Sequence record: MH051914
Length of the DNA: 64,000 nucleotides
Origin: Enterobacteria phage vB_EcoM_IME338
Direction: 5' to 3' (one strand)
A program made the position numbers and the translations under genes. Below are positions 7,043 to 63,972 of this stretch, piece by piece; position 1 is the stretch's first letter; each line of letters begins with the position of its first letter. Below the pieces are notes generated by a model. That model ran no database searches and had not been told where the DNA came from. It was given only the letters and a program-made list of their open reading frames with translations.

Positions 7043-7063
7043 AAGACCAATTTAGGTCTTTTT
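7043..7063 (+). terminator. hairpin plus short T-run inside tRNA array (terminator or processing site)
   Basis: aagacc-aattta-ggtctt followed by ttt. Confidence 0.35.
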
Positions 7064-7142
7064 AGAGGGCTTCTAAGGTTATTACAGCTTGTTGTGGAAC
7101 CTTGTTGCTTAGGTTCTTAGAAGTTCTCTAAAAAGATTTAAT

Positions 7143-7219
7143 GCACCTATAGCCCAACTGGTAGAGGCAGCAGACTTAGAATCTGCTCAGTGTGAGTTCG
7201 AATCTCTCTAGGTGTACCA
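7143..7219 (+). tRNA. tRNA-Leu (anticodon TAG), class I-like short variable arm
   Basis: Acceptor gcaccta/taggtgt, anticodon stem gcaga/tctgc loop cttagaa, 5-nt variable loop, TTCGAAT T-loop, A73, CCA. Confidence 0.55.
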
Positions 7220-7226
7220 AATTAAT

Positions 7227-7302
7227 GCAGGTGTAGCAAAATGGTTATGCGGCTGACTCTTAATCAGTAAGACGATGGGTTCAATTCCCTCCACCTGTAC
7301 CA
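7227..7302 (+). tRNA. tRNA-Lys (anticodon CTT)
   Basis: Acceptor gcaggtg/cacctgt, anticodon stem gctga/tcagt loop ctcttaa, TTCAATT T-loop, CCA. Confidence 0.7.
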
Positions 7303-7308
7303 AACATT

Positions 7309-7384
7309 GGGGTCATAGTTTATATGGTTAAAATTCGAGTTTTGCAAACTTGGGAACTGAGTTCAATTCTCAGTGACTCCACCA
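7309..7384 (+). tRNA. tRNA-Ala (anticodon TGC)
   Basis: Acceptor ggggtca/tgactcc, D-stem gttt/aaat, anticodon stem cgagt/acttg loop tttgcaa, T-arm ctgag-TTCAATT-ctcag, CCA. Confidence 0.65.
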
Positions 7385-7390
7385 ATTAGT

Positions 7391-7465
7391 GCATCCATAG
7401 TTTAAACGGGAAAATTACAGTCTTCCAAACTGAGGTTGAGGGTTCGATTCCCTCTGGATGCTCCA
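7391..7465 (+). tRNA. tRNA-Gly (anticodon TCC)
   Basis: Acceptor gcatcca/tggatgc, anticodon loop cttccaa, T-arm gaggg-TTCGATT-ccctc, CCA. Confidence 0.7.
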
Positions 7466-7472
7466 AATTAAT

Positions 7473-7549
7473 GCTGCTTTCGTATAATTGGCTATTACAC
7501 ATCCCTTGTAAGGATGGAAATGCAGGTTCGAGTCCTGTGAGCAGCACCA
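7473..7549 (+). tRNA. tRNA-Thr (anticodon TGT)
   Basis: Acceptor gctgctt/gagcagc, anticodon stem catcc/ggatg loop cttgtaa, T-arm gcagg-TTCGAGT-cctgt, CCA. Confidence 0.7.
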
Positions 7550-7553
7550 ATTC

Positions 7554-7640
7554 AGAGGTCAAGTGAAAGACCGCTGGTGTCAACTGAAGACCGTAACAAA
7601 TTCCACGGAGTTGAGTTAGCGGCACAACTTCAGACCTCTT
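7554..7640 (+). repeat. inter-tRNA hairpin element, variant copy (CAGAGGTC...GACCTCT)
   Basis: 5' agaggtc pairs with 3' gacctct enclosing about 70 nt; same architecture as CAGAAGACC...GGTCTGG elements. Confidence 0.5.
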
Positions 7641-7644
7641 TCAT

Positions 7645-7719
7645 ACTCGCTTAGTTTATATGGTAAAACACCACCCTTACAAGATGAAGAAAAAGGTTCA
7701 AGTCCTTTAGTGAGTACCA
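7645..7719 (+). tRNA. tRNA-Val (anticodon TAC), weak anticodon stem; possible pseudo-tRNA
   Basis: Acceptor actcgct/agtgagt, D-stem gttt/aaac, loop cttacaa but anticodon stem only 3/5 paired, T-arm aaagg-TTCAAGT-ccttt, CCA. Confidence 0.35.
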
Positions 7720-7720
7720 T

Positions 7721-7799
7721 GTTCCAGTATCCCAATTGGCAGAGAGGCCAGACTTAAAATCTGTGTTATGTATCGGTTCGAATCCGATATGGAGTACCA
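7721..7799 (+). tRNA. tRNA-Leu (anticodon TAA), short variable arm
   Basis: Acceptor gttccag/atggagt (6/7 with wobbles), anticodon loop cttaaaa, T-arm atcgg-TTCGAAT-ccgat, A73, CCA. Confidence 0.5.
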
Positions 7800-7804
7800 A
7801 ATTT

Positions 7805-7880
7805 AGCGGTATAGCATAACTGGCAATGCAACAGTCTCTGAAGCTGTCTTATTAAGGTTCAAATCCTTATGCCGCTGCCA
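7805..7880 (+). tRNA. tRNA-Gln (anticodon CTG)
   Basis: Acceptor agcggta/tgccgct, anticodon stem acagt/gctgt loop ctctgaa, T-arm taagg-TTCAAAT-cctta, CCA. Confidence 0.7.
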
Positions 7881-7911
7881 CTTCTAAGGATTCTTACGAG
7901 AGTCCTTAAAT

Positions 7912-7987
7912 GTGGCCTTATCATAAATGGTAATAACCCATGCTGTGAACATGGTCTATACGGGTTCAAATCCCGTAGGTCACCCCA
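7912..7987 (+). tRNA. tRNA-His (anticodon GTG)
   Basis: Acceptor gtggcct/aggtcac, anticodon stem ccatg/catgg loop ctgtgaa, T-arm acggg-TTCAAAT-cccgt, CCA. Confidence 0.65.
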
Positions 7988-7992
7988 ATTTA

Positions 7993-8069
7993 TAGTCCAA
8001 GTAGCTTATATGGTTAAAGCGCGTGTCTGAAAAACATGAGAAGAGGGTTCAAATCCCACTGGACTACCA
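7993..8069 (+). tRNA. tRNA-Phe (anticodon GAA)
   Basis: Acceptor tagtcca/tggacta, anticodon stem cgtgt/acatg loop ctgaaaa, TTCAAAT T-loop; 3' end register uncertain by 1-2 nt. Confidence 0.6.
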
Positions 8070-8085
8070 ATTTCAAAGGTGCTTA

Positions 8086-8820
8086 ATGAAAGAGATGACA
8101 GAACAAGGTAAGGAGATTTTTAATCTCTTAAAAACCGGTAGAGGGTTTTCTAATCCCCTTATTACTGGTGCAGCAGTTCTCGGTGGAACCGTAGCTGCCT
8201 CTACATCACTTATAAGCTCTATTAGCTCTGTAACAGACCCTACAATAAAGGATAAACTTGTTGCTGCTGGACTGACAACAGTTCTGCTTAACAGCTTTAC
8301 AACGAGCCTGACAAGCACTACATCAACCACTAAGACATTGACAGACTACGGTCAAAAGTCTATTGATGAGTTTTCATCACGTATGCAGGTAGCAAAAGGC
8401 TATTCTAATGTTATGGGTGCAGCAGGAGAGCAAGTTGGTTGTACACCATTTAGTGGTATTATGGGTGTTGCTACAGAGTATGGTCAAAAAGCTATTGACA
8501 CAATTAACAGTGCACTAGATGGTGTTAATGATGTATTAAGCGACTTACAAGATGCTATTGATAAAGGTCTTGATACTATTTCTGATTTAGCTAACCAAGC
8601 TGTTAGCAAGATTAATGAAGGTATCTCAAAGATTACAGCTTATGCAGATGAAGTTGTGCAGATGATTGAAGAAGAAGCTGCCCTTATTGCAGAGTACCTT
8701 AAAACGAATATCAATGGGTTCTTAGCAGGTATCTTACCAGACTGGTTTGACGATGCTTGTAAAACTGGTGTAATTGATACTATTGCAACACCAGAAATGA
8801 AGAACGCATTACAGAAATAA
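8086..8820 (+). CDS. hypothetical Ser/Thr-rich protein with one hydrophobic segment, embedded between tRNA genes
   Basis: ORF 8023..8820 trimmed to ATG 8086 because upstream part overlaps tRNA-Phe; hydrophobic stretch PLITGAAVLGGTVAASTSLI. Confidence 0.5.
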   Translation: MKEMTEQGKEIFNLLKTGRGFSNPLITGAAVLGGTVAASTSLISSISSVTDPTIKDKLVAAGLTTVLLNSFTTSLTSTTSTTKTLTDYGQKSIDEFSSRMQVAKGYSNVMGAAGEQVGCTPFSGIMGVATEYGQKAIDTINSALDGVNDVLSDLQDAIDKGLDTISDLANQAVSKINEGISKITAYADEVVQMIEEEAALIAEYLKTNINGFLAGILPDWFDDACKTGVIDTIATPEMKNALQK

Positions 8821-8821
8821 T

Positions 8822-8914
8822 GGAAGATTAACCCTAAAAGGTAAGGGAGCAGTTTGCTAAACTGCCAGTAGCTGAGAAATCGGTGTACCAGTTCAAGTCT
8901 GGTATCTTCCTCCA
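8822..8914 (+). tRNA. tRNA-Ser (anticodon GCT), long variable arm
   Basis: Acceptor ggaagat/atcttcc, anticodon stem gcagt/actgc loop ttgctaa, long variable arm, T-arm accag-TTCAAGT-ctggt, CCA. Confidence 0.7.
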
Positions 8915-8918
8915 ATTT

Positions 8919-8994
8919 GAATCCGTGACAGAAATGGATATGTGCCTGTCTGCAAAACAGGTTTATAAGGGTTCGAGTCCCTTCGGATTCTCCA
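8919..8994 (+). tRNA. tRNA-Cys (anticodon GCA)
   Basis: Acceptor gaatccg/cggattc, anticodon stem cctgt/acagg loop ctgcaaa, T-arm aaggg-TTCGAGT-ccctt, CCA. Confidence 0.7.
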
Positions 8995-9438: not shown

Positions 9439-11040
9439 ATGGACTTAAATGCTGTTAAGCAGAAGCGAGTGGAAGATGTTAGGAAAGTCCTAGCTGGAGA
9501 GTTGGGGCTTTCTGATGAAGTAAAAGAAATTATCAAATCATTCGGTAAAGACCCCTCTAAATTCCTTCCAACTCAAATTCTGACTTTATTAAGATACACA
9601 CCAGACCAAGTTCGCCTCATCTTTAAATTGATGACTGATAAGAACTATGTAGCCCCTCAACCGGGTTCTCAAGAGGTGTTTTTAAATACTAATGCTGACT
9701 TGGTTTTATATGGTGGTGCTGCTGGTGCTGGTAAAACTGCTGCATTGTTAATGGACTCTTTAAGGTTTATTGAAGACCCTAACTATAATGCTGTATATTT
9801 CCGTCGAAATACAACACAGTTACAAGGTGGTTTATGGCCTGCTGCAAAGAAACTATTTGGTAAGTTTGGTGGGGTTCCTCACGAGCAGAAGATGACTATC
9901 ACATTCCCTTCTGGGGCAACTATCAAGTTCACCTACCTAGAACTTGAAAAGCACGCTGAAGGTCATCAGGGTATTGAATACTCAGCTATTTACTTTGACG
10001 AAGGTACACACTTCTCAGCTTCACAGATTTCATACCTACAGACTCGTCTACGTTCCGGTGCTGAAGGTGATTCATACATGAAGATTTCTATGAACCCAGA
10101 TAGAGACCACTTCATTTATGATTGGGTAGAGCCATTCTTAGATGAAGAAGGTTATCCAGACCCTGAGAAATGTGGTCGTATTCGTTGGTATGTTATGAAT
10201 GATGGTGTGATGGTTTCTGATTGGGAGAGAGACAAGATTCTTGAAATGTTCCCTCTTGAGATTCCTCAGACATACACCTTCATCTCTGGTACGATTGATG
10301 ATAACCCAATTCTTGACTTCTTAGAACCTAAATATCGTGGTAAGTTGGAAAACAACACACCTGTAAACGTTGCAAGACTTCGTTTCGGTAACTGGAAGGC
10401 TCGTGCAGAAGGTTCAAACTATTGGCAAAGACAATGGTGTGAGATTGTTGATTCACTACCAGAAGATGTTTTTGATGTCAGAGCATGGGACTTAGCAGCG
10501 ACTTTACCATCTGAAATTAACCCTAACCCAGACTGGACAGCGGGTGTTAAGATGGGTAAATCTAAAAAAGACGGTTGCTATTATATCATTGATGTAGTAA
10601 GATTTAGAGATAGACCCTCTGGAGTCGAAACACAAATTAATTTGACTGCTGAAAGTGACGGTAAGCGAACTGGTATTTTTATCCCTCAAGACCCAGGCGC
10701 TGCTGGTAAATCCTATGCAACATCCCTCATCAGGAAACTTGCCGAGAAAGGTTATCGCGCAAGAGCTAAACCCACAAATAAAGATAAAGTTACCCGCTTT
10801 GCGGGATTTTCTGCTGCTTCTGAAGCTGGACTTGTAAAAGTCTTGAGAGGTAGTTGGAACGAAGCTTACTTCCAAGAACTTGAAGGTTTTTGTGGTGATG
10901 GCAAAACTAAAGATGACCAAGTGGATGCTACCAGTGATGCTTTCAACAGTCTTAATGAAGTTAAATTATTCAAGCCACCATCAATGGGTGCTCACACAGA
11001 CTTAGTGAGAGGAAACCCATATGAGGGGCTTAGACGTTGA
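9439..11040 (+). CDS. terL: terminase large subunit
   Basis: Walker A VLYGGAAGAGKTAAL, Walker B-like IYFDEGTH, C-terminal nuclease-like region; start set to ATG 9439 after GGAGG RBS. Confidence 0.9.
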   Translation: MDLNAVKQKRVEDVRKVLAGELGLSDEVKEIIKSFGKDPSKFLPTQILTLLRYTPDQVRLIFKLMTDKNYVAPQPGSQEVFLNTNADLVLYGGAAGAGKTAALLMDSLRFIEDPNYNAVYFRRNTTQLQGGLWPAAKKLFGKFGGVPHEQKMTITFPSGATIKFTYLELEKHAEGHQGIEYSAIYFDEGTHFSASQISYLQTRLRSGAEGDSYMKISMNPDRDHFIYDWVEPFLDEEGYPDPEKCGRIRWYVMNDGVMVSDWERDKILEMFPLEIPQTYTFISGTIDDNPILDFLEPKYRGKLENNTPVNVARLRFGNWKARAEGSNYWQRQWCEIVDSLPEDVFDVRAWDLAATLPSEINPNPDWTAGVKMGKSKKDGCYYIIDVVRFRDRPSGVETQINLTAESDGKRTGIFIPQDPGAAGKSYATSLIRKLAEKGYRARAKPTNKDKVTRFAGFSAASEAGLVKVLRGSWNEAYFQELEGFCGDGKTKDDQVDATSDAFNSLNEVKLFKPPSMGAHTDLVRGNPYEGLRR

Positions 11041-11056
11041 TAGCTAGGTGAGAAGA

Positions 11057-12583
11057 ATGGCAGAAATTACAGAAACACAAGAAAGCTTACCACCATTTAG
11101 AATGGGTGAAGTAGGTTCTTTGGGTCTGAAGGTTAAGAATGGTAGAATCTATGAAGAACCTCGTCAGGCACTAAGGTTCCCTGAAAGTATTAAAACTTTC
11201 CAATTAATGATGCGTGACCCTGCTGTAGCAGCATCTGTAAATATTATTAAGATGTTTGTCAGAAAAGTCAACTGGAGATTCGTACCTCCAAAGGGAAAAG
11301 AGCAAGACCCTAAAATGCTTGAAAGAGCAGACTTCTTTAATTCTTTAATGGATGACATGGAGCATGATTGGGCAGATTTTATTAACTCTGTAATGTCATT
11401 CTGCACTTATGGATTCTGTGTTAACGAAAAGGTTTATAAGAAACGTCAGGGTAAAAAAGGAAAGTACCAGTCAAAATTTGATGATGGTCTAATTGGGTGG
11501 GCTAAATTACCAATCAGAAATCAATCAACGCTTGATAAGTGGTATTTTGACGAAGACTTTAGAAAAGTTACTGGTGTAAGACAGAATCTGAGAAATGTTT
11601 CACATATTGCTGGAGCAATTAATCTTGGAGAAAGACCACTAACAAGAAAACTCCCACGAGCTAAGTTCATGCTGTTTAAGTATGATGATGAGTATGGTAA
11701 CCCAGAAGGTCGTTCACCAGCTAAGTTCATGCTGTTTAAGTATGATGATGAGTATGGTAACCCAGAAGGTCGTTCACCATTACTTAATGCTTATGTACCG
11801 TGGAAGTATAAAGTACAGATTGAAGAGTATGAAGCTGTTGGTGTTTCAAGAGACTTGGTAGGTATGCCAAAGATTGGTTTACCACCAGATTATCTGGATG
11901 AAAATGCAGAACCTGAAAAGAAAGCTTTCGTACAATACTGCAAAACTGTTGTTAATGATATGATTGCTAACGACAGAGCAGGTTTAATCTGGCCTAGATA
12001 TATCGACCCAGATACTAAAGAGGATATTTTCGAGTTCTCATTAGTTTCTAGACAGGGTGCTAAAGCATATGACACAGGCTCTATTATTGACAGGTATTCT
12101 AAGCAGATTATGATGGCATTTATGTCAGATGTTCTTGCTATGGGTCAATCAAAATATGGTTCATTCTCTCTTGCAGATTCTAAGACAAGCTTATTAGCAA
12201 TGTCAGTAGACATTCTGCTGAAGCAAATTAAGAACGTAATCAACCGCGACTTAGTTGCACAGACTTATGCTCTTAATATGTGGGATGATGAAGAACATGT
12301 GCAAATCACATATGATGATATCGAAACTCCAGACCTTGAAGTAATTGGTTCTTACATTCAGAAGACTGTTGCAGTAGGTGCTTTGGAAGTTGACAAAGAG
12401 CTATCTAATAAACTTAGAGAGCATATTGGTCTTCCTCCTGCTGATGAGTCTCAGCCAGTATCTGAAAAGCTTTCTCCAAATAGCCAAAGCCGTTCAGGAG
12501 ATGGTTATAAGACCGCTGGAGAAGGTACTGCAAAGACACCTTCAGCGAAAGACCCAAGCACAGCAAATAAGGCAAATAAATAA
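11057..12583 (+). CDS. portal protein (putative), contains in-frame 60-bp tandem duplication
   Basis: About 508 aa immediately downstream of terL; position and size typical of portal; start set to ATG 11057. Confidence 0.55.
   Translation: MAEITETQESLPPFRMGEVGSLGLKVKNGRIYEEPRQALRFPESIKTFQLMMRDPAVAASVNIIKMFVRKVNWRFVPPKGKEQDPKMLERADFFNSLMDDMEHDWADFINSVMSFCTYGFCVNEKVYKKRQGKKGKYQSKFDDGLIGWAKLPIRNQSTLDKWYFDEDFRKVTGVRQNLRNVSHIAGAINLGERPLTRKLPRAKFMLFKYDDEYGNPEGRSPAKFMLFKYDDEYGNPEGRSPLLNAYVPWKYKVQIEEYEAVGVSRDLVGMPKIGLPPDYLDENAEPEKKAFVQYCKTVVNDMIANDRAGLIWPRYIDPDTKEDIFEFSLVSRQGAKAYDTGSIIDRYSKQIMMAFMSDVLAMGQSKYGSFSLADSKTSLLAMSVDILLKQIKNVINRDLVAQTYALNMWDDEEHVQITYDDIETPDLEVIGSYIQKTVAVGALEVDKELSNKLREHIGLPPADESQPVSEKLSPNSQSRSGDGYKTAGEGTAKTPSAKDPSTANKANK
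11661..11780 (+). repeat. perfect 60-bp direct tandem duplication, in frame within portal gene
   Basis: ctaagttcatgctgtttaagtatgatgatgagtatggtaacccagaaggtcgttcacca occurs twice back to back (59/60 identical), duplicating AKFMLFKYDDEYGNPEGRSP. Confidence 0.95.
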
Positions 12584-35241: not shown

Positions 35242-35745
35242 TCATACCTCTACAAAGGTGTTTTTGTCATTATCAAACTCGAAGAGTTTTATACACTTCT
35301 GAGTCTTCCAGTCAATCTTTTGGTCATAAGAAAGACCTTGAGAGACTCTCTTACCAACTGTTTGATAGATAATTTCACGCAGAGCATCATATTCCTTCCA
35401 AGCTCTTGTACCAATAGTTATATTGGCTCTCTTATAGCTCTCAACAGCTTGCTCATTCCAACGTTGCTCACTAACACTACCAACTTTGTAGAGTCTTGGA
35501 AGAAGCTCATAAACCATTTGACCTTTCTCTCTGGCAATCTTTAGGTTATGAAGGTACTCGTTAAGGCGACCGTCTTCTTCAAGCCAACGATAAAGACTCT
35601 GGAGACCAAAAATCTCGTTGTTGAAGTGAGCAGCACGTTTCACAGAACCTAAGTCAGCACGATAATCTGATTTAGGGAGGCTTAGAATACAATCTTGTAA
35701 TACATTGTATCCAAAGTACAAGTTCAGTTTTATGGGAAGAGACAT
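35242..35745 (-). CDS. hypothetical protein
   Basis: 167 aa ORF. Confidence 0.5.
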   Translation of the reverse strand: MSLPIKLNLYFGYNVLQDCILSLPKSDYRADLGSVKRAAHFNNEIFGLQSLYRWLEEDGRLNEYLHNLKIAREKGQMVYELLPRLYKVGSVSEQRWNEQAVESYKRANITIGTRAWKEYDALREIIYQTVGKRVSQGLSYDQKIDWKTQKCIKLFEFDNDKNTFVEV

Positions 35746-38795: not shown

Positions 38796-38846
38796 ATAAC
38801 CTCCTATATAAGATATTGTATAATATACTCTTCCATGAGCACCTTG

Positions 38847-39379
38847 TCAAGATAGTTTTGCAAACTCTCCGTGGAGTTTTATAGTGGCTTCACAGTAAGC
38901 TTTATGGGCTTCTTCAGGTGTGTCATGATAACCTAAAAACATCTTCTTACCTCTATAACTTATCTGTGCGACCCACCTACCAGACTTCTTCTTAAGACTT
39001 ACACCCTTGTACCCAGATTTATTGGTGACTGGCTTACCTTTATTCCAAGCACTTTGAAAGTCATCTGCTTCCCTTAAGTTTACAATCCTGTTGTCAAGTG
39101 AGTCTCCGTTGATATGGTCAATGATACTTTTGGCATCTTGCCATACACGTAAAGCCATGCGAGTCTGTGTGCTTTATGTGCTTTCTTGTCAAAATAGATA
39201 CTAATCTGTTTATGACCACTTGAATCAGTCTGGATATTACCTGCCACCTTTCCTGCATAATTACTGTTAAAAACACTAACAGCTCTTGATTTACCTTCTC
39301 TACGAAGCCAAGTAAAGACCCCTGTTTCGGGGTCATAGCGTAGCAGCTCCTTTAAACGTTTTTGTAAAATAAAATCCAT
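38847..39379 (-). pseudogene. HNH-AP2 homing endonuclease gene interrupted by a 1-nt frameshift (pseudogene or sequencing error)
   Basis: Upstream frame [14 protein letters not shown]; downstream frame [22 protein letters not shown] plus AP2-like YKGVSLKKKSGRWVAQISYRGKKMFLGYHDTPEEAHKAY; frames meet at A/T run near 39116-39123. Confidence 0.7.
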
Positions 39380-39382
39380 TAA

Positions 39383-39939
39383 TCAATGTACCTCATACCA
39401 GCTCTTACCAACCTTTGCTGTACCAGTTACAAGTGTTTCTTTCCTCAAGCCTAAGTTTTTTGAAGCTTGCCCATACATCCAGTCAGCAATTGCTTTCATA
39501 TCATGTGTCATACCCTCTGGGCATTCCCAACTATTTTCGTCGTGATATGCCAGAAGTAACCTTGCTCCGATAGCTGGTTTTCGAGCATTCAGTTTTGTCA
39601 GGCCATCTTCACAGGCTTTTCTTGCTGCTAGGTTGATGGCTTCATTCTGAATCTGTGCTTCCGAACTCATCAGGAGGTAGTTCAGTAGTTTATGTGGAGA
39701 TTTGCACCATATCCATGCTCCAGCGACCCTGATATAACCACCTTTAGCAATTGAAGAGTTCTTCCCAAAAACCTCTTCCAGAGCCTTTTTAGACGCCTTA
39801 AAATCAGCTTCTAAGCTATCAAGTAACTTCTTAATCTTTGGTAAACGCATATAGTAAGTTTGTTTAGTCAATGCACCTTCTTCCGTAGATGATGCCTTGA
39901 TAGTTTTTGCAAACTTCTCATCGCCAGCCCCGAACAATA
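39383..39939 (-). CDS. DNA polymerase (family A, T7 gp5-like), exon 2
   Basis: Encodes motif B remainder FGAGDEKFAKTI and motif C LLAYHDE; ends ...WYEVH as in T7-type polymerases. Confidence 0.85.
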
Positions 39940-40207
39940 CATCTGGTCAATACACTCGCAAGGTGTACCAGTTCTCTTATGAACTTCTCCGCATTTCTAC
40001 GGAGTGTCGGACTATATCACGTAGCAGTGATGCTACCGTTGCACTTGGGGATGGTCATTAGCTTACCACCCTACTCTACTCAGTTCATACGTTAAGTATG
40101 CTTTTCGATAGTCTCTGAACGTTCCTCTTAAGAGGCTTCGCTGCTGATTACCATATCTTTCCAGACTTAGGCTTCCAGCAATTCACAACGTTTTACATGC
40201 GCCACTG
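39940..40207 (-). ncRNA. group I self-splicing intron (ORF-less, 268 nt) within DNA polymerase gene
   Basis: Exon 1 ends GCG U; internal guide GCGCAU pairs AUGCGU of exon; R-like GUUCAGAGACUA and S-like GAUAUAGUCCG elements; intron ends G; splicing restores AKNGIYALLFGAGDEK. Confidence 0.8.
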
Positions 40208-42350
40208 ACGCATAAATGCCATTTTTGGCTTTCTTACGACCTTTTGTAATCTCGTGAAGAAGCTCCTCATCCTGCGTCTCCCTACAACGAACAATATCAT
40301 CTTCCTTGTTTAGACCGAAGTAAATACTATTCAGTGTATGTGCATCAGTACCTGTGTAGACTTCGTAGAGGTCATTCTCAGCATCATAACGAAGATACTT
40401 ATCAGTTTCTGGATTGAGGTACTTATCGAGATGCTTGCAATAGTATCTTCCATCCTCTTGCTTGGTAAATTCTACTGACTCTTTACCTTCAGTTACCGCT
40501 TTGGTGAAGTCTTTATCACCCATAAAGTTACACAGTAAAACAAGCTGTGCAGAGTTCTGGTCAACTGAAACGATATTAGTCCCTTCCTCGCAAATCCACA
40601 CCTCCCTCATAGGTGCTCCATAGACAGCAGCACCAGACGGTACGTTTACAATACCATATTGTGTCATACGTCCAGTTGAAGTACCAAACACCATTGCACC
40701 AGCACTAAGGCGACCATCAGGACGAATCTGGTTCAACCAACCTTTTTCATCATCCTTTGAGTTCTCAATAGTTCTGCGTCGGTGCATCAAGGTATAGTAT
40801 TTCGCAATCTTCTGTCCAAGCTCACCTTCAATCGTATCATAAGATGATTCAGTAAGTTTTGGTGAAGTACGGATTAAGCAAGGCTCAAGCAAATCTGTGT
40901 ACTTCTTCACAGACCAGTTATGCTCAATGTACTGGACACCTTCGTGTTCAACATAACTCAAACCACACCGTTCCACCATCTCATCCCATTTAGGATGCTT
41001 TGTAATCATCTTTTTGTTGTCTTTGAAGCGACAAACCTTAACAGGACGACCATCAGAGTCTTTCTTATAGTTCCAGTCATCTGGAATCCAACCAACTGAT
41101 TTCAAGTAGTCTTTAACAACTGCTACCTGAGTCATACGAGAAACTTCGAACTCAATTGGTGTATATGGTGCATCAATCAAACCTGTGTAGCGACTTGACT
41201 CAAGTTCAAAGTGGTTAACAACATGACTGTTATAGTACTTCACAGTCTTAACTGTTTTTACTGGCTTCCAGTCTTTGCATTTCTTACCAATCTTTGCATT
41301 CAACTCATTGCAAATTGCACGAGCATCCTTCATTGCTACAAAGCCTTCCTTGTACTCTTCACCAGTTACCGAGTTGGTTGGTGTATAGCAATTCCGCTTT
41401 TCAATGTTAAAAATCTTTGTAGTTGGCTTACCAAATGGCTTGATTTCATATGTCTGCATCTCACCGTTACGTACCTGTTGACGATACTTTGTCTTAGGGT
41501 ACTTGGTAATTCTCTTCAGTCCATCTGCATGACCAAATGCTTCAACATACTCATTCCAAGCTTTTGCAAATTCTTCTCCAGTGACTTTACCTTTGGTCTT
41601 AATAGTTGGAGGAAGATGTGGTTCAACTTCTGAAGCAAGCTCGTTAGTCAACTTGTCAAGTTCCTTTACATGGAACTCCATAAGCTCTTTATCAGCTTTC
41701 CAACCATTGATAGCCTGTTGACTCATCCAGAAAGATGTTTCTTTAGCTCGCATGTAGGTTTCATAGGTGTCTACGCCACACTTCTTTAGCTTCAGATATT
41801 CATTATCCAATGCACGTTTAGTTTTGGCGTTAATACGGATATCTTCCACAACACGAGTGAAGATTTCTGCATTCCACACACCCCAATGTTCAATCTCTGG
41901 TTTACGGACACCAACACGAGCACCCCATGCTGCCAAGCCATGAGCACCTTTATAGCCTTTTGGAGTTGGTCTATCCATCCACTGAACACGAGACTGGATA
42001 AGAGAATCCTGAAAGAAATTACTCCACGGCTTACACTTTGGATTATCAAAGTTCCACAAATCGGGTGCAATGTGATTGAAAACCCACCAGTCATAACCGA
42101 GACCGTTATGGATGCAAAGACGTTTTGCCTTTAACGCAAATTCAACACCTTCACGTAAACCACCCTTAATGTACTTGGTATACTTGTGACCGAGGATAGG
42201 TTCATCTGTAAAGACCCATACAGGTGGCTCTTCATCGTCAGATTTATAGTCTGCGAAAGCCATTACGTGCACTTTAGTGAACTCAAGGAGTAAACCATCA
42301 GTTTCTGTATCACCAACTAAATGTAAGTTTTTAAAATCTACGTTTTCCAT
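40208..42350 (-). CDS. DNA polymerase (family A, T7 gp5-like), exon 1
   Basis: 3'-5' exonuclease motif LVGDTETDGL; motif A IVSVDQNSAQL; start of motif B RKKAKNGIYA; start set at MENVDF after GAGGGAG RBS. Confidence 0.85.
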
Positions 42351-42410
42351 TTTTACTCCCTCTAAAATCATTAACCTCATACATTACTGCAAAAAATTAT
42401 AAAAAGCAAG

Positions 42411-55288: not shown

Positions 55289-55487
55289 ACGCCTTTGGGA
55301 AGGTTTGGTTATTGATGCACCAGTTATTGTCATTGGTATGCTTATTGCTAACCTATTTACTGACTTTAAACAAGGTTTGTTGTTTGGAGTCATGTTACTA
55401 TGGGTTATCTTTGAAATATTAGAAATACAGCTAGGCATCACTGAAAAACTAAGAGAACTCTTTTCAAAGTTTTCTAAAAAGATTTAA
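55281..55487 (+). CDS. small hydrophobic protein
   Basis: 68 aa; two hydrophobic segments. Confidence 0.35.
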   Translation: MLKRLWEGLVIDAPVIVIGMLIANLFTDFKQGLLFGVMLLWVIFEILEIQLGITEKLRELFSKFSKKI

Positions 55488-55493
55488 AATGAA

Positions 55494-55516
55494 AGGGTCT
55501 CTTCGGAGACCTTTTT
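55494..55516 (+). terminator. rho-independent terminator
   Basis: ggtctc-ttcg-gagacc hairpin followed by TTTTT. Confidence 0.75.
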
Positions 55517-55535
55517 AGCATGTAAAGGGGCAATA

Positions 55536-56732
55536 ATGAACAAAGTACAGATTATTAAAAAGAATGGCTCACTTGAAGAACCGGATATCAAAAAAGTTTT
55601 AACAGCAGTAACTAAGTCAGCTAACAGGGTTGGTTATAAAGAACTCCCACCAGATGTTATCCAAGCTCTTGAGTCAGCATTTATGAGGATTCTGGTAAAA
55701 TCCACTAAGCAGAATAACTTGCTCATCTCGGTAAATGATATCCACAGTATCGTTGAAGGTGCTTTGGCAGAAGTCAATCACGAGATTTATGAGTCTTACT
55801 CAACATATAGAAATTACCGTAAAGAAGTTGCTCAAAATTGGGATGAGCTTTACCAAAAGACCAAAGACACACTCTTCTTAGGTGACCGTGAAAATGCTAA
55901 CTTTGACAGCAGTTTAATTTCTACAAAAGGTTCAATTATTCGTGGTTACCTGACTAAAGAAATCTTTAAACAGTACCATTTAACACCAGAGGAACTTGAA
56001 GCCATTGAAAAAGGGTTTATCTACATCCATGACTTAAGAGACCTAATTTTTGGTGGTATCAACTGTTGCCTGTTCGACATTGGTAAAGTACTGAAAGGTG
56101 GCTTTGAAATGTCTGGCATCGAATACTGCGAACCTAAATCTGTGCTGTCAGCCTTACAGGTTATTGGTGATGTAGTTCTTTCAGCAACTGCACAGCAATT
56201 TGGTGGTTTTACTTTAGCAGAGATTGATAAGGTACTTGTACCGTATGCTAAGAAATCTCTACGCTATCATGCTGAGAAAGCAGCATCCTACGGTATTCCT
56301 AAAGAACATTACCACAATTATGTCATGGAGCAGCTACAGATTGAACTGACTCAAGGTTTCCAGTCACTTGAAATGAAACTAAATACTGTACCTTGTAGTC
56401 GTGGGGATTTTGCATTCACAACTTTGACATTCGGGTTACTTGACTCAGATATGTCCAATGAAGATAACCGACTGCAATATATAATTGCAAGTACTCTCCT
56501 AGATGTTCGTATGAATGGACAAGGTAAGAGCAAAAAGCCTGTTGTATTCCCTAAACTGGTTTATATTTATGACCAGAAGAGACATAGTGAGAATATCTGT
56601 CAAGGACACCTGTACAGTAAAGCCATTGAGTGTTGCTCTAAAGCAATGTATCCAGATTTCTTAAGTGTATCTGGTCATGGTGCTGTAGCAGAGGCTTTTG
56701 AGCGTTCTGGTAAGGTTATTTCACCGATGGGT
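55536..56732 (+). CDS. nrdD: anaerobic ribonucleotide reductase (class III), exon 1
   Basis: N-terminal ATP-cone; exon ends ...VISPMG, continued in exon 2 as CRAFL matching the conserved PMGCR(S/A)FL of NrdD. Confidence 0.85.
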
Positions 56733-57048
56733 TAACAAGCTCTATAGCTCATCTAAAACGTGCCTAAACAGGGAAACTCTACAGATGTAGACAATCCTGT
56801 GCTAAATGATGTACGATGTAAGAAACTATACAACATAGGAGTCTTACATGCCAAACAACTTCGAATATGAGTTTGAATACATCTAAATGCCGAACGACTA
56901 ACCGTGATGAATGTAGCGGTGTAGGGTCAAGCGACTCGAAATGGTACGCTACTTAGAAATAAGTAGAAGATATAGTCTGGACTTACTGGTGACAGTAAGC
57001 AGCTTGAATAAAGCGGGGTAAGTGTAGCGAACTTATCTGAACAACAAG
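56733..57048 (+). ncRNA. group I self-splicing intron (ORF-less, 316 nt) within nrdD
   Basis: Exon 1 ends GGU; guide GCUCAUC pairs GAUGGGU; P/Q-like CCUAAACAGGGAAACUC...GACAAUCCUGUGCUAAAU, R-like ACGACUAAC, S-like AAGAUAUAGUCUGG; ends G at 57048. Confidence 0.8.
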
Positions 57049-57996
57049 TGTAGAGCATTTTTATCACCATACCATAATGAAGATGGTGAAGAATTTTATG
57101 TAGGTCGCGCTAACATCGGTGCTGTATCTTTGAACTTGCCAATGATTTACCAGTACTCTAAAGAGAATGGTTTAGATTTCTGGAAAGAGCTTGATAAGTA
57201 CCTAGAAATGATTCGTAGCTTCCACAAGAAACGCTACGAAATGATTGCTAATATGCCAGCAAGTTCTAACCCTCTTGCATTTACACAAGGTGGTCTGTAC
57301 AAAGGGACTAAGAAACCTACTGACAAGGTTGGCTGGGATATCGTGAAGTCCTTCACAGCTTCTTTTGGGGTTACTGCTCTTGATGAGCTGTCTGTTCTTG
57401 CTGAAGGTAAACGACTTCATGAAGTTGGAAGTTCTAGTTTTGCATACGATGTTCTGGCATACATCAACATGAAAACTGAAGAGTTTAAAGATGAAGATGG
57501 CTTCTTATATGCCGTATATGGCACTCCAGCAGAATCACTTTGTGGAACTCAGCTAAAACAGTTCAGAGATATGTTTGGAGTTATCAAGGGTGTTTCTGAT
57601 AAAGAATACTTTACAAATAGTTTCCATATGAATGTTGCAGCAGATATCTCACCATTTGAGAAGCAGGACTTAGAAGAACCCTTCTTCCATATCTGTAGAG
57701 GCGGCAGAATCCAGTATGTAAGGGTAGCTAATCCAGAAAACTTATCAGCACTTAAAAGTTGTATTACAAGAGGGATGTTGAAAGGTTTCTATCAGGGACT
57801 TAACTTTGACTTAGCAATCTGTGAACATTGTGGTAACAGACCAAAGGCTGATGTTGAAGAATGTGAGGTTTGCCATTCACATGATATTTCTGTGATTAAC
57901 AGGGTGTGCGGGTACTTGTCATTCACAAAAATTAAAGGTCAGTCTCGAATGAATGACGCTAAGATGGCAGAAATTAAGGATAGGGTTTCTATGTAA
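57049..57996 (+). CDS. nrdD: anaerobic ribonucleotide reductase (class III), exon 2
   Basis: Frame open from 57028; CRAFLSPYHNEDGEEFYVGRANIGAVSLNLP; C-terminal Cys4 cluster and glycyl-radical motif RVCGYL. Confidence 0.85.
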   Translation, partial: CRAFLSPYHNEDGEEFYVGRANIGAVSLNLPMIYQYSKENGLDFWKELDKYLEMIRSFHKKRYEMIANMPASSNPLAFTQGGLYKGTKKPTDKVGWDIVKSFTASFGVTALDELSVLAEGKRLHEVGSSSFAYDVLAYINMKTEEFKDEDGFLYAVYGTPAESLCGTQLKQFRDMFGVIKGVSDKEYFTNSFHMNVAADISPFEKQDLEEPFFHICRGGRIQYVRVANPENLSALKSCITRGMLKGFYQGLNFDLAICEHCGNRPKADVEECEVCHSHDISVINRVCGYLSFTKIKGQSRMNDAKMAEIKDRVSM

Positions 57997-61643: not shown

Positions 61644-63425
61644 ATGACTAAATCACTTTATGCAGTACCAGCAGGTCTTAATGCAGATGCTTACAAGGCA
61701 TCACATATATATCAGTATCCAGATGCTACGCAATATCTTATGTTGAACCTGACACCACGTAGTGACAAATGGTTTAACAGCCCTTTGGCAATTGACGGTG
61801 TAGTGGCTTTTGGTATTCAACGTTTCGTTAAAGATTACTTGATAGACCACTGGAACGCCACTTTCTTTGAACGTGATAAAAAAGAAGCAATTGACGAAAT
61901 CTTAGAAGTCATGAATGGTGTTCTGGGTAAAGATGCTATCGGTCGAGAGCATTGGGAAGCACTTCACGACTTAGGTTATCTACCAGTTGAAGTATACGCT
62001 GTAGAAGAAGGCACAGTTGTTCCAATGCGTGTCCCGATGATTGTCTTTCAGAACACTGTTTCAGGTTTCCATTGGGTAGCAGGTTATCTGGAAGATGCTT
62101 TCTCTGCTGAGATTTGGAAGGCTTGTACCATTGCAACTATTGCATTGCACTACAAACGTATCTGTAAGAAGTGGGCTGACCTTACTTGTGACAATGACTT
62201 GCATTTGCCTTATCAGTGCCATGACTTTGCTATGCGTGGTATGTCCGGCTTTACTGATGACGCATTTAACGCTGTAGGACACTTAACCAGCTTTAAAGGA
62301 ACTGATAGCTTCCCTGCTGTGTATACAGCTAAACGCATCTATGGGCAGTCCTACCCAATCTCTGATATTGGTAGTTCTGTACCAGCCACTGAACACTCTG
62401 TAATGTGTGCAAACATTGCTTGGGAAGGTGGTAATGAGTTGATTGAAGAAGAAAGACGTTTTAAAGGTGAGTTACAAACCTTCCGTCGTTTCTTAACAGA
62501 AACTTACCCAACTGGTATTGCAAGTGTTGTCTCAGACACTTATAACTTTTGGAGAACTGTGTCAGAAATCTTACCAGCACTTCGTAAAGAGATTATGGAA
62601 CGTGATGGTAAACTGGTAATTCGTCCTGACTCTGGTGACCCTGTACATATTGTCACAGGCTATAAAGCAATCCACTTAGAGTGCGCTAAAAAGGCTTATT
62701 ACGAACACCTAAGCAAGCTGGAAGCCAGCGACACAATGCTGAATGCTGTTCTGAACATGAAGCTTGAAAACATCAACTATGGTATTGCTGGATGGCTACT
62801 GTCAGAAGGCTACGAAATGGTTGTTGACAGAGAAGACTTTGAAGTTGCTGATACAGTGCTGTTGAAAAATGCTTATATGGTTGGCTCTGCAAACGTTGTA
62901 ACACGTCCTGTAGCAGAGATTGATGGGGCTATTAAGACCTTGTATAACATCTTTGGAGGAACTATCAACTCTAAAGGTTTTAAGGTACTGGATGAGCACA
63001 TTGGACTTATCTATGGTGACTCTATCACGTTGGAACGTGCAAACGAAATCCTGAAGCGTCTGTATGAAATGGGTTTTGCAAGCTCTAACGTAGTGTTTGG
63101 CGTAGGCTCTTACACTTACCAGTACATGACTCGTGACACCTTTGCATTTGCTGTCAAAGCAACTCTTGCAAGCATTGGTGGTAAAGAGATTATGCTTGCA
63201 AAAGACCCTAAAACAGATAGTGGTGTTAAGAAATCTGCCTTTGGTGGTGTAGCACCTATGTGGGATGGTGATAAGCTGAAAGCTGTAGATGGCTATGGAT
63301 TCCAGAGTTTTGCAGATGTACTTGACCACCCAGCTTGTGCCTTACGTTTAGTCTTTAGTGACTCTGAGCAGTTCGGCTACAAAACTCTTGGTGATATTCG
63401 AAATAATATTGACAAGCAGCTTTAA
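61644..63425 (+). CDS. nadV: nicotinamide phosphoribosyltransferase-like protein (NAMPT/NadV family)
   Basis: 593 aa; size and motifs (e.g. GSSVPATEHS, RPDSGDP) consistent with type II phosphoribosyltransferase NAMPT family. Confidence 0.8.
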   Translation: MTKSLYAVPAGLNADAYKASHIYQYPDATQYLMLNLTPRSDKWFNSPLAIDGVVAFGIQRFVKDYLIDHWNATFFERDKKEAIDEILEVMNGVLGKDAIGREHWEALHDLGYLPVEVYAVEEGTVVPMRVPMIVFQNTVSGFHWVAGYLEDAFSAEIWKACTIATIALHYKRICKKWADLTCDNDLHLPYQCHDFAMRGMSGFTDDAFNAVGHLTSFKGTDSFPAVYTAKRIYGQSYPISDIGSSVPATEHSVMCANIAWEGGNELIEEERRFKGELQTFRRFLTETYPTGIASVVSDTYNFWRTVSEILPALRKEIMERDGKLVIRPDSGDPVHIVTGYKAIHLECAKKAYYEHLSKLEASDTMLNAVLNMKLENINYGIAGWLLSEGYEMVVDREDFEVADTVLLKNAYMVGSANVVTRPVAEIDGAIKTLYNIFGGTINSKGFKVLDEHIGLIYGDSITLERANEILKRLYEMGFASSNVVFGVGSYTYQYMTRDTFAFAVKATLASIGGKEIMLAKDPKTDSGVKKSAFGGVAPMWDGDKLKAVDGYGFQSFADVLDHPACALRLVFSDSEQFGYKTLGDIRNNIDKQL

Positions 63426-63439
63426 AAGTATATGATAAG

Positions 63440-63462
63440 AGGCTCCTATAGGAGCCTTTTTA
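63440..63462 (+). terminator. rho-independent terminator
   Basis: aggctcc-tata-ggagcct hairpin followed by TTTTT. Confidence 0.75.
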
Positions 63463-63478
63463 ATTTCTGGAGAAAGAT

Positions 63479-63814
63479 ATGAAAATCAAAGAGATGAATA
63501 TTAACGTTGTCTTGGAAGAACGCTGGGAAAACATTAAGAAACCTGAAGATGGTAAAAAGTTTCTTAACAAAATTTTAGTAGCAGCTAAAGAAGAACTGAA
63601 TGGCAAGATTGCAGCAGCAATCACAATAAAGGTTTGTGTAAAAGGTCTTCCAGACAACCACCAATTTGCACTTGACGAGTTTAAAGAAAGCTTCTACAAT
63701 CCAAACAAACAGATGCTTGAAAGTAACTTTGCAGTATCTACAAGTATCGTCCATGACAGAAGCTTTATCCTTTACAAAAATATGAGAGGTGAGTCATGCA
63801 AGCATATTGGATAG
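63479..63814 (+). CDS. hypothetical protein
   Basis: 111 aa ORF. Confidence 0.45.
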   Translation: MKIKEMNINVVLEERWENIKKPEDGKKFLNKILVAAKEELNGKIAAAITIKVCVKGLPDNHQFALDEFKESFYNPNKQMLESNFAVSTSIVHDRSFILYKNMRGESCKHIG

Positions 63815-63972
63815 AAATTTTACTGTCACTTGGTAGTGTAGCAGTATTTGTTTACCTTCTTTGCAAGTACTACGCAGAGTACAAGAAGTGTGATTACTGC
63901 AATGGGGAAGGTTATACAAGAGCAGGTTGTTGCCCTATGTGTGGCGGTTCTGGTAAGATGTTTAATAAGTAA
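63796..63972 (+). CDS. small membrane protein with C-terminal Cys-rich motif
   Basis: 58 aa ORF not in supplied track: MQAYWIEILLSLGSVAVFVYLLCKYYAEYKKCDYCNGEGYTRAGCCPMCGGSGKMFNK. Confidence 0.3.
   Translation: MQAYWIEILLSLGSVAVFVYLLCKYYAEYKKCDYCNGEGYTRAGCCPMCGGSGKMFNK

Follow-up and report, generated by a model that had tools for sequence, protein, structure and literature searches.

On the minus strand of the DNA analysed here, a stretch of 64,000 nucleotides of Enterobacteria phage vB_EcoM_IME338 (sequence record MH051914; hereafter the window), a DNA polymerase gene is followed by an HNH gene that is read in two frames, by two small ORFs of unknown function (PHROGs 4230 and 4427) and by a DNA ligase gene. 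The polymerase gene is interrupted by a group I intron, and the coordinates of the main features are collected in Table 1. The window belongs to the genome of a Felix O1-like myovirus (Ounavirinae, Felixounavirus), of which it spans roughly three quarters. The 24 kb surrounding the HNH locus were matched by 292 phage records, none of which is identical to them, and the top matches are Escherichia phages CRP22, L27 and phiWec172/174, with ~95% identity over ~91%. The only ORF of the window for which CRP22 has no homologue is located at 35242..35745 (PHROG 9143, function unknown).

Table 1. Features of the polymerase-HNH locus in the window, with the evidence or description for each.
Feature	Position	Strand	Description and evidence
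DNA polymerase, exon 1	40208..42380	-	Start at 42380 (ORF list) or 42350 (alignment of CRP22 residue 1)
ORF-less group I intron of the DNA polymerase gene	39940..40207	-	268 nt; Rfam RF00028, 62.2 bits (gathering score 50)
DNA polymerase, exon 2	39383..39939	-	184 codons + stop; 100% aa identity to the CRP22 C-terminus
HNH-AP2 homing endonuclease gene, whole (probable pseudogene)	38847..39379	-	533 nt (relatives: 534 nt, 177 aa); ortholog alignments, Pfam, PHROG
Frame 1 ORF	39080..39379	-	99 aa; ORF list, tblastn, alignment
Frame 2 ORF	38847..39158	-	103 aa; ORF list, Pfam, tblastn
Lesion	39127..39128	-	One G missing between A39128 and T39126; alignment with 22 relatives
Promoter-like site TTGACA-17-TATATT	38822..38850	-	11/12 sigma-70 consensus matches; marks the 3' edge of the cassette

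The HNH-AP2 gene and its missing base

In a preliminary description of this DNA, made from the letters alone, the two overlapping ORFs were taken to be two frames of one HNH-AP2 gene. This is borne out by the ORF list and by the protein obtained after a one-base repair, which carries both an HNH_3 and an AP2 domain. The two ORFs overlap by 79 nt in different frames. Residues 1-84 of the frame 1 ORF (39379..39128) are the genuine N-terminal part of the protein and its last 15 residues are out of frame, and the frame 2 ORF encodes, from 39127 on, the core of the His-Me finger together with the DNA-binding AP2 domain. By tblastn, residues 1-84 of the CRP22 HNH protein fall on 39379..39128 (frame -1) and residues 84-177 on 39131..38850 (frame -3). 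With one base restored, the frames join into a protein of 177 aa, and the canonical HNH motif appears in it as had been foreseen.

In the repaired protein, Pfam HNH_3 is matched over residues 69-104 (E 7.6e-14, 51.5 bits, cutoff 24.8), Pfam AP2 is matched with E 3.2e-11 (43.8 bits, cutoff 33.3) and PHROG 99 'HNH endonuclease' with E 1.3e-70; the AP2 part aligns with the solved plant AP2/ERF structures 7wq5 and 5wx9. Searched alone against Pfam, the frame 1 ORF gives no match, and the frame 2 ORF gives AP2 together with HNH_3 only at profile positions 19-38, which is the second half of the profile. A member of the HNH-AP2 family is expected to be a single ORF with a His-Me finger (HNH_3) and a C-terminal AP2 domain. 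The AP2 domain is present in the repaired protein, the His-Me finger is complete only when the missing base is put back, and in place of the single ORF there are two overlapping frames in the window.

At the lesion, CCAAAAGGTATC (Pro-Lys-Gly-Ile) in the relatives stands against CCAAAAGTATC in the window; in short form, the junction is AAAAGGTATC in the relatives and AAAAGTATC in the window. What is missing is one of the two Gs of a doublet located directly 3' of the A4 run 39131..39128. A single-base frameshift had been rightly recognised beforehand, but its description as lying 'in a homopolymer' is only loosely right, as the site is a doublet beside a run, and the position first given for it (39116-39123) has to be moved: the alignment puts the lesion 4-11 nt away, at 39127/39128. 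The catalytic Asp-His of the IIDHINGD...N...N core follows three codons later, and therefore frame 1 keeps residues 1-84 only, the core and the AP2 domain being left in frame 2. The break falls inside the HNH_3 domain.

The orthologs of the relatives are annotated as one 534-nt, 177-aa 'HNH endonuclease' CDS whose start lies 3 nt past the polymerase stop. Alignment to intact HNH-AP2 endonucleases, a check that had been proposed together with the preliminary description, leaves a one-base gap in the window against these 534-nt genes. The region is 94.6-98.5% identical in nucleotides to the single-ORF orthologs and, judging from this identity to annotated HNH genes, its reading as one gene is far beyond chance. 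Because the window has two frames and a one-base gap with respect to 22 relatives, its copy is regarded as a pseudogene of the HNH-AP2 family, that is, as a probably non-working member.

The occurrence of the deletion was surveyed in 22 close relatives taken from GenBank phage records, all of them Felixounavirus genomes. The 534-nt ORF is intact and uninterrupted in 20 of the 22 and GG stands at the lesion site in every one. The remaining two, RPN213 and D1-2, share another alteration: close to the 5' end, GGGG has become GGGGG, and in their annotation the start has been moved to an internal ATG (163 aa). The G run in which this insertion is found belongs to a hairpin, GACCCC-GAAACA-GGGGTC (39317..39334, minus strand), which is located 45 nt inside the HNH gene and had been marked as resembling a terminator.

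The search was extended with a 54-nt query built so that each of its 28-mers spans the deletion junction, gapped matches being also returned. It retrieved 35 phage records, none at 100%; all 35 matches span 55 nt and the extra base is therefore present in all of them. In exact-pattern scans the deletion allele was absent from IMG/VR, from JGI metagenome contigs and from GTDB species genomes, and 3 IMG/VR contigs carry the intact allele. A search for related loci in IMG/VR returned 7, and an exact look-up of the two ORF products in a large index of public assemblies gave no record.

A cassette beside a mosaic polymerase gene

The HNH gene is, as far as the flanks of the aligned genomes indicate, a precise cassette of ~530 nt inserted between the polymerase stop codon and the promoter of the operon that follows. 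The polymerase stop TGA (39385..39383) stands 3 nt ahead of the HNH ATG (TGATTAATG) and, at the other end, the -35 box of the promoter-like site overlaps the HNH stop codon. The corresponding precise empty site is found in VpaE1, which is devoid of the HNH gene (...CAC TAA TTAGTA TTGACAAGG) and where the same promoter sequence (TTGACAAGGTGCTCATGG...) is located 6 nt past the polymerase stop. The HNH gene has no promoter of its own; intact copies would be co-transcribed with the polymerase gene and translationally coupled to it through the closely spaced stop and start codons.

The cassette is present in ~45-54 of ~200-290 related records, and at least 80% of the locus query is covered in 54 of 200. 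Among the matches listed, ~32 records have both the HNH cassette and the polymerase intron, and at least 10 (e.g. HY02, CRP22, Z31, ph2-2, ECOH1 and bumzen) have the cassette without the intron. Felix O1 (FO1a) carries at the same spot a different HNH allele of 167 aa which shares only the C-terminal 26 residues, and further divergent alleles also exist. The presence of the element next to a conserved essential gene, that of DNA polymerase, is in this way sporadic (54/200 records, the empty site of VpaE1 and the other allele of FO1a). Beyond the genus, tblastn revealed HNH-AP2 relatives in 3,510 phage records; one of them, in Erwinia phage Coenus (58% identity), also adjoins the polymerase gene. 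A precise cassette, a sporadic distribution and a variety of alleles are, on comparative grounds, standard for a free-standing homing endonuclease gene (HEG).

Regarding the intron of the polymerase gene, its boundaries were inferred from the intronless gene of CRP22, with U before the 5' splice site and G ending the intron. The inferred exon join, ...AAT GGC ATT TAT GCG T/TA TTG TTC GGG... (the stroke marks the junction), restores NGIYALLFGAGDEKF as in CRP22. The same 268-nt intron was found in 96 phage records, in some of which it carries an 'endonuclease VII' ORF of ~530 nt. VpaE1 has the intron without the HNH cassette, and the 'endonuclease VII' ORF of its intron (positions 1266-1726 of the fetched locus) looks split into two overlapping ORFs. 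Most of the ORF-less introns among the matches listed have an HNH gene downstream. The HNH gene occurs with and without the intron, and the two elements are therefore not strictly linked.

An ORF-less intron with a free-standing HNH gene downstream resembles the 'collaborative homing' described elsewhere (PMC3984707), which is defined by an endonuclease target at the site of intron insertion; the likeness here concerns the gene arrangement only. In contrast to that system, the HNH gene is also found next to intronless polymerase genes and the intron is also found without the HNH gene or with an endonuclease VII ORF. All combinations of presence and absence occur, and a strict dependence between intron and HNH gene is neither supported nor excluded.

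The site of intron insertion is recoded in several intronless relatives. In the alleles of CRP22, HY02 and FO1a, 10-11 consecutive synonymous third positions differ from the window over ~30 nt across the insertion site (ATT TAT GCG TTA TTG TTC GGG GCT GGC GAT in the window; ATC TAC GCC CTG TTA TTT GGA GCC GGA GAC in the intronless alleles), and neither the protein nor the flanks differ. The recoded stretch corresponds to 40190..40230 and 39910..39940 (minus strand) in the window and to 2240-2360 in the fetched CRP22 locus. The intronless allele of the phiSUSP1 type retains the intron-type sequence at the insertion site. From its sequence, the recoded site looks like a short co-conversion tract or like a homing site that was recoded and is resistant to the nuclease.

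A sharp mosaic boundary is observed as well. The nucleotide identity between the window and FO1a is 93.4% in exon 1, 71.8% in exon 2 (76.6% in amino acids) and ~95% further downstream. CRP22, which is intronless here, shares the HNH allele of the window, and at the protein level its exon 2 and that of the window are 100% identical. From this match and from the divergence of FO1a, the type of exon 2 seems to travel with the HNH allele, a linkage that would be expected of a co-conversion tract or of a linked immune target. The mosaic pattern suggests a homing target within the 3' part of the polymerase gene. In a co-infection, an intact enzyme would cleave the matching region in relatives without the HEG, and repair would then copy in the cassette together with the adjoining 3' segment of the polymerase gene.

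Other homing elements and their traces were also recorded. A second group I intron (56675..56999, plus strand; Rfam 55.9 bits) lies in the gene for anaerobic ribonucleotide reductase and divides it in two; the gap between the two nrdD halves is 56733..57141 and the intron there is ORF-less. At the position of this nrdD intron, CRP22 has an ORF for an HNH homing endonuclease of 154 aa. No intact homing endonuclease gene was found in the window, and the CRP22 genes for HNH endonucleases at 10557-11045, 55367-55822 and 63419-63883 and for endonuclease VII at 12223-12570 have no counterpart at their loci in it. A cluster of 20 tRNA genes is found at 4992..8991 (plus strand; Rfam tRNA matches of 33-70 bits), and the CRP22 region matching this cluster contains an HNH and an endonuclease VII gene, both missing in the window. 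Besides, two records named 'Campylobacter phage A132/A126' (MG065664.1 and MG065668.1, UNVERIFIED) contain the Felixounavirus polymerase-intron-HNH locus at ~96% identity; they are probably mislabelled or contaminated.

Readings of the frameshift

A HEG passes through an accepted life cycle of invasion, fixation and then decay. Considered as a whole, the locus is best explained as a free-standing HNH-AP2 HEG of the Felixounavirus type which has probably been inactivated by a real one-base deletion. By the change from GG to G, residues 1-84 would be disconnected from the part of the protein with the His-Me finger core and AP2 domain; the endonuclease would thereby be inactive and the HEG would have entered the degeneration phase. 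A decaying endonuclease or a sequencing error were the two readings put forward in the preliminary description, and the choice between them is the right one to consider, with 20/22 relatives intact and the extra base in 35/35 records.

The second of these readings holds that the phage truly has an intact gene of 534 nt and that one G was dropped from the consensus in an AAAAGG context. It seems unlikely, but several observations agree with it. The change is a single-base deletion beside a short homopolymer, it is private to the window sequence among the records and contigs scanned, GG is found at the site in 22 of 22 relatives, and the remainder of the gene keeps an identity of 94.6-98.5% to functional-looking copies. 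It also counts against a real mutation that the deletion allele has no independent confirmation in any other record or contig searched.

The quality of the rest of the window speaks against such an error. When all 129 CDS of CRP22 were compared with the window by tblastn, ~85 had a counterpart, and the HNH gene is the only frame break among them, the split of the polymerase gene being due to its intron; with one frame break only among ~85 CDS, this is not an indel-prone assembly. The chance that a lone random error lands in these 533 nt of ~58 kb of coding sequence is ~1%, by our own estimate, and GG is atypical as a site of homopolymer errors. The 2.8-kb locus was also aligned with ten relatives, and the window shows no private indel there besides the missing G.

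The substitutions also bear on the question. Those private to the window in the HNH gene are three non-synonymous (H14R, K135R, A166T) and no synonymous ones. Among the singletons in the alleles of 20 relatives, 6 changes are non-synonymous as opposed to 14 that are synonymous (Fisher one-sided p = 0.047 against the window; p = 0.02 when the first 12 relatives were used), and of the 9 private changes in the polymerase gene of the window none is non-synonymous and all are synonymous (p = 0.0045 against the HNH gene), all of which is to be read bearing in mind that the HNH side of the comparison consists of three substitutions only. Private changes that are all non-synonymous fit a relaxed constraint on the window copy, and this pattern points to a real and fairly recent inactivation. 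K135R, however, is also found in a more distant allele and could reflect recombination, and the HNH polymorphisms of the relatives (21 non-synonymous, 34 synonymous) indicate that the constraint on this gene is only moderate. There is no excess of private divergence in the HNH gene with respect to polymerase exon 1 (3/533 vs 8/1193) and only the ratio of both kinds of change stands out; the density of private substitutions not being raised, any decay would therefore be recent. On balance, a real deletion that has left the HEG as a decaying pseudogene is the reading we favour with reasonable confidence.

It is very improbable that the split gene is still productive, be it through -1 slippage of tRNA-Lys on A_AAA_G (which would give a G85S enzyme), as a split enzyme or as an AP2-only DNA-binding protein. 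The frame change required from frame 1 to frame 2 is indeed -1, and the Lys codon AAA is preceded by an A, so that re-pairing is possible with a product ...MPK-S-IIDH; compensatory frameshifting at low level over indels has been documented elsewhere (PMC5009743), and other phage systems have recruited DNA-binding domains from HEGs (PMC10448857). Nevertheless, the site is G CCA AAA G and contains no X XXY YYZ heptamer: the P-site CCA would re-pair as GCC, and tRNA-Lys is the only tRNA able to re-pair there. Over the 40-90 nt downstream, shuffled sequences give stronger folds than the real one (minimum free energy z = +0.8 to +2.0), and no SD-like stimulator is found upstream. The two-frame layout is not conserved either, with a plain in-frame GG in 35/35 records and 22/22 relatives. 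As for the fragments, the ATG of frame 2 at 39158 is not preceded by a Shine-Dalgarno sequence (upstream sequence AAAGCACACAGACTCGC), and the break lies inside HNH_3, which is matched in full only in the repaired protein.

A programmed -1 frameshift site was rejected on the three counts of heptamer, stimulatory element and conservation; ribosomal frameshifting had been ranked beforehand as a lower-probability alternative, and the absence of such signals agrees with this ranking. Any rescue by frameshifting would be adventitious and at trace level. Least probable of all is a tolerated attenuation, in which a trace of full-length enzyme (G85S) made by tRNA-Lys slippage, or an AP2 fragment persisting as a DNA-binding protein, would let the phage retain some homing or immunity function and spare it the cost of a fully expressed nuclease.

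Known systems and meaning of the locus

The closest known copies are those of SLAM_phiST56 (XJW10041.1), HY02 (AIK67904.1) and CRP22 (WIL01216.1), all of 177 aa and at the same locus right after the polymerase stop. These Felixounavirus orthologs are like the window in their HNH_3 + AP2 architecture, in their flanks and in their nucleotide identity (94.6-98.5%), and unlike it in having a single 534-nt ORF, whereas the window lacks one G and has the changes H14R, K135R and A166T. For Felix O1 itself, six HNH endonuclease genes and zero introns have been reported (PMC3185647).

Homing endonucleases that combine an HNH with an AP2 domain are recognised as a family, with members in protists, cyanobacteria and phages (Magnani et al. 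2004, as cited in PMC10448857). HEGs vary in their presence among phages and often contain frameshifts (Barth et al. 2023, PMC10448857), and 29% of the IPA-HNH HEGs are located near DNA polymerase genes (PMC10448857). The IPA-HNH proteins of phage ICP1 share with the window gene an N-terminal HNH and a C-terminal AP2 domain, and they are likewise free-standing, placed by essential genes, variable in presence and often inactivated by frameshifts. Related to this, ICP1 gp115/gp116 is a pair of HNH and AP2 proteins split by a frameshift (PMC10448857). In that pair the split is between the domains, whereas in the window the break is inside the HNH motif; moreover, the HNH of the window is a canonical Pfam HNH_3 and the ICP1 proteins are too divergent for this profile, ICP1 being of a different phage lineage from the Felixounavirus of the window.

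I-TevIII of T4 is reported to be a defunct phage homing endonuclease which is mobilised in trans by mobE (PMC2790892). It resembles the window gene in that the function of a phage HEG has been lost and the surrounding element persists, and it differs in being intron-encoded and of another architecture. A trans-acting helper is not evident in the window, where no other HEG was found.

The finding is correct and of an ordinary kind, as frameshifted HNH-AP2 homing genes have already been described. In practical terms, annotating the two ORFs as two hypothetical proteins should be avoided: they call for a single entry, an HNH-AP2 homing endonuclease pseudogene, or else for a renewed check against the reads. 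Beyond annotation its significance is small: the window copy is one data point which fits the life cycle of HEGs and the reported instability of these genes in phages. It is known that nucleases sit at boundaries of genetic exchange (PMC10448857), and the locus as a whole, with an ORF-less polymerase intron, an insertion site recoded in intronless relatives and a 3' segment of the polymerase gene that seems to go together with the HNH allele, offers a neat illustration from nature of this known biology, in which nuclease genes mark the boundaries of recombination.
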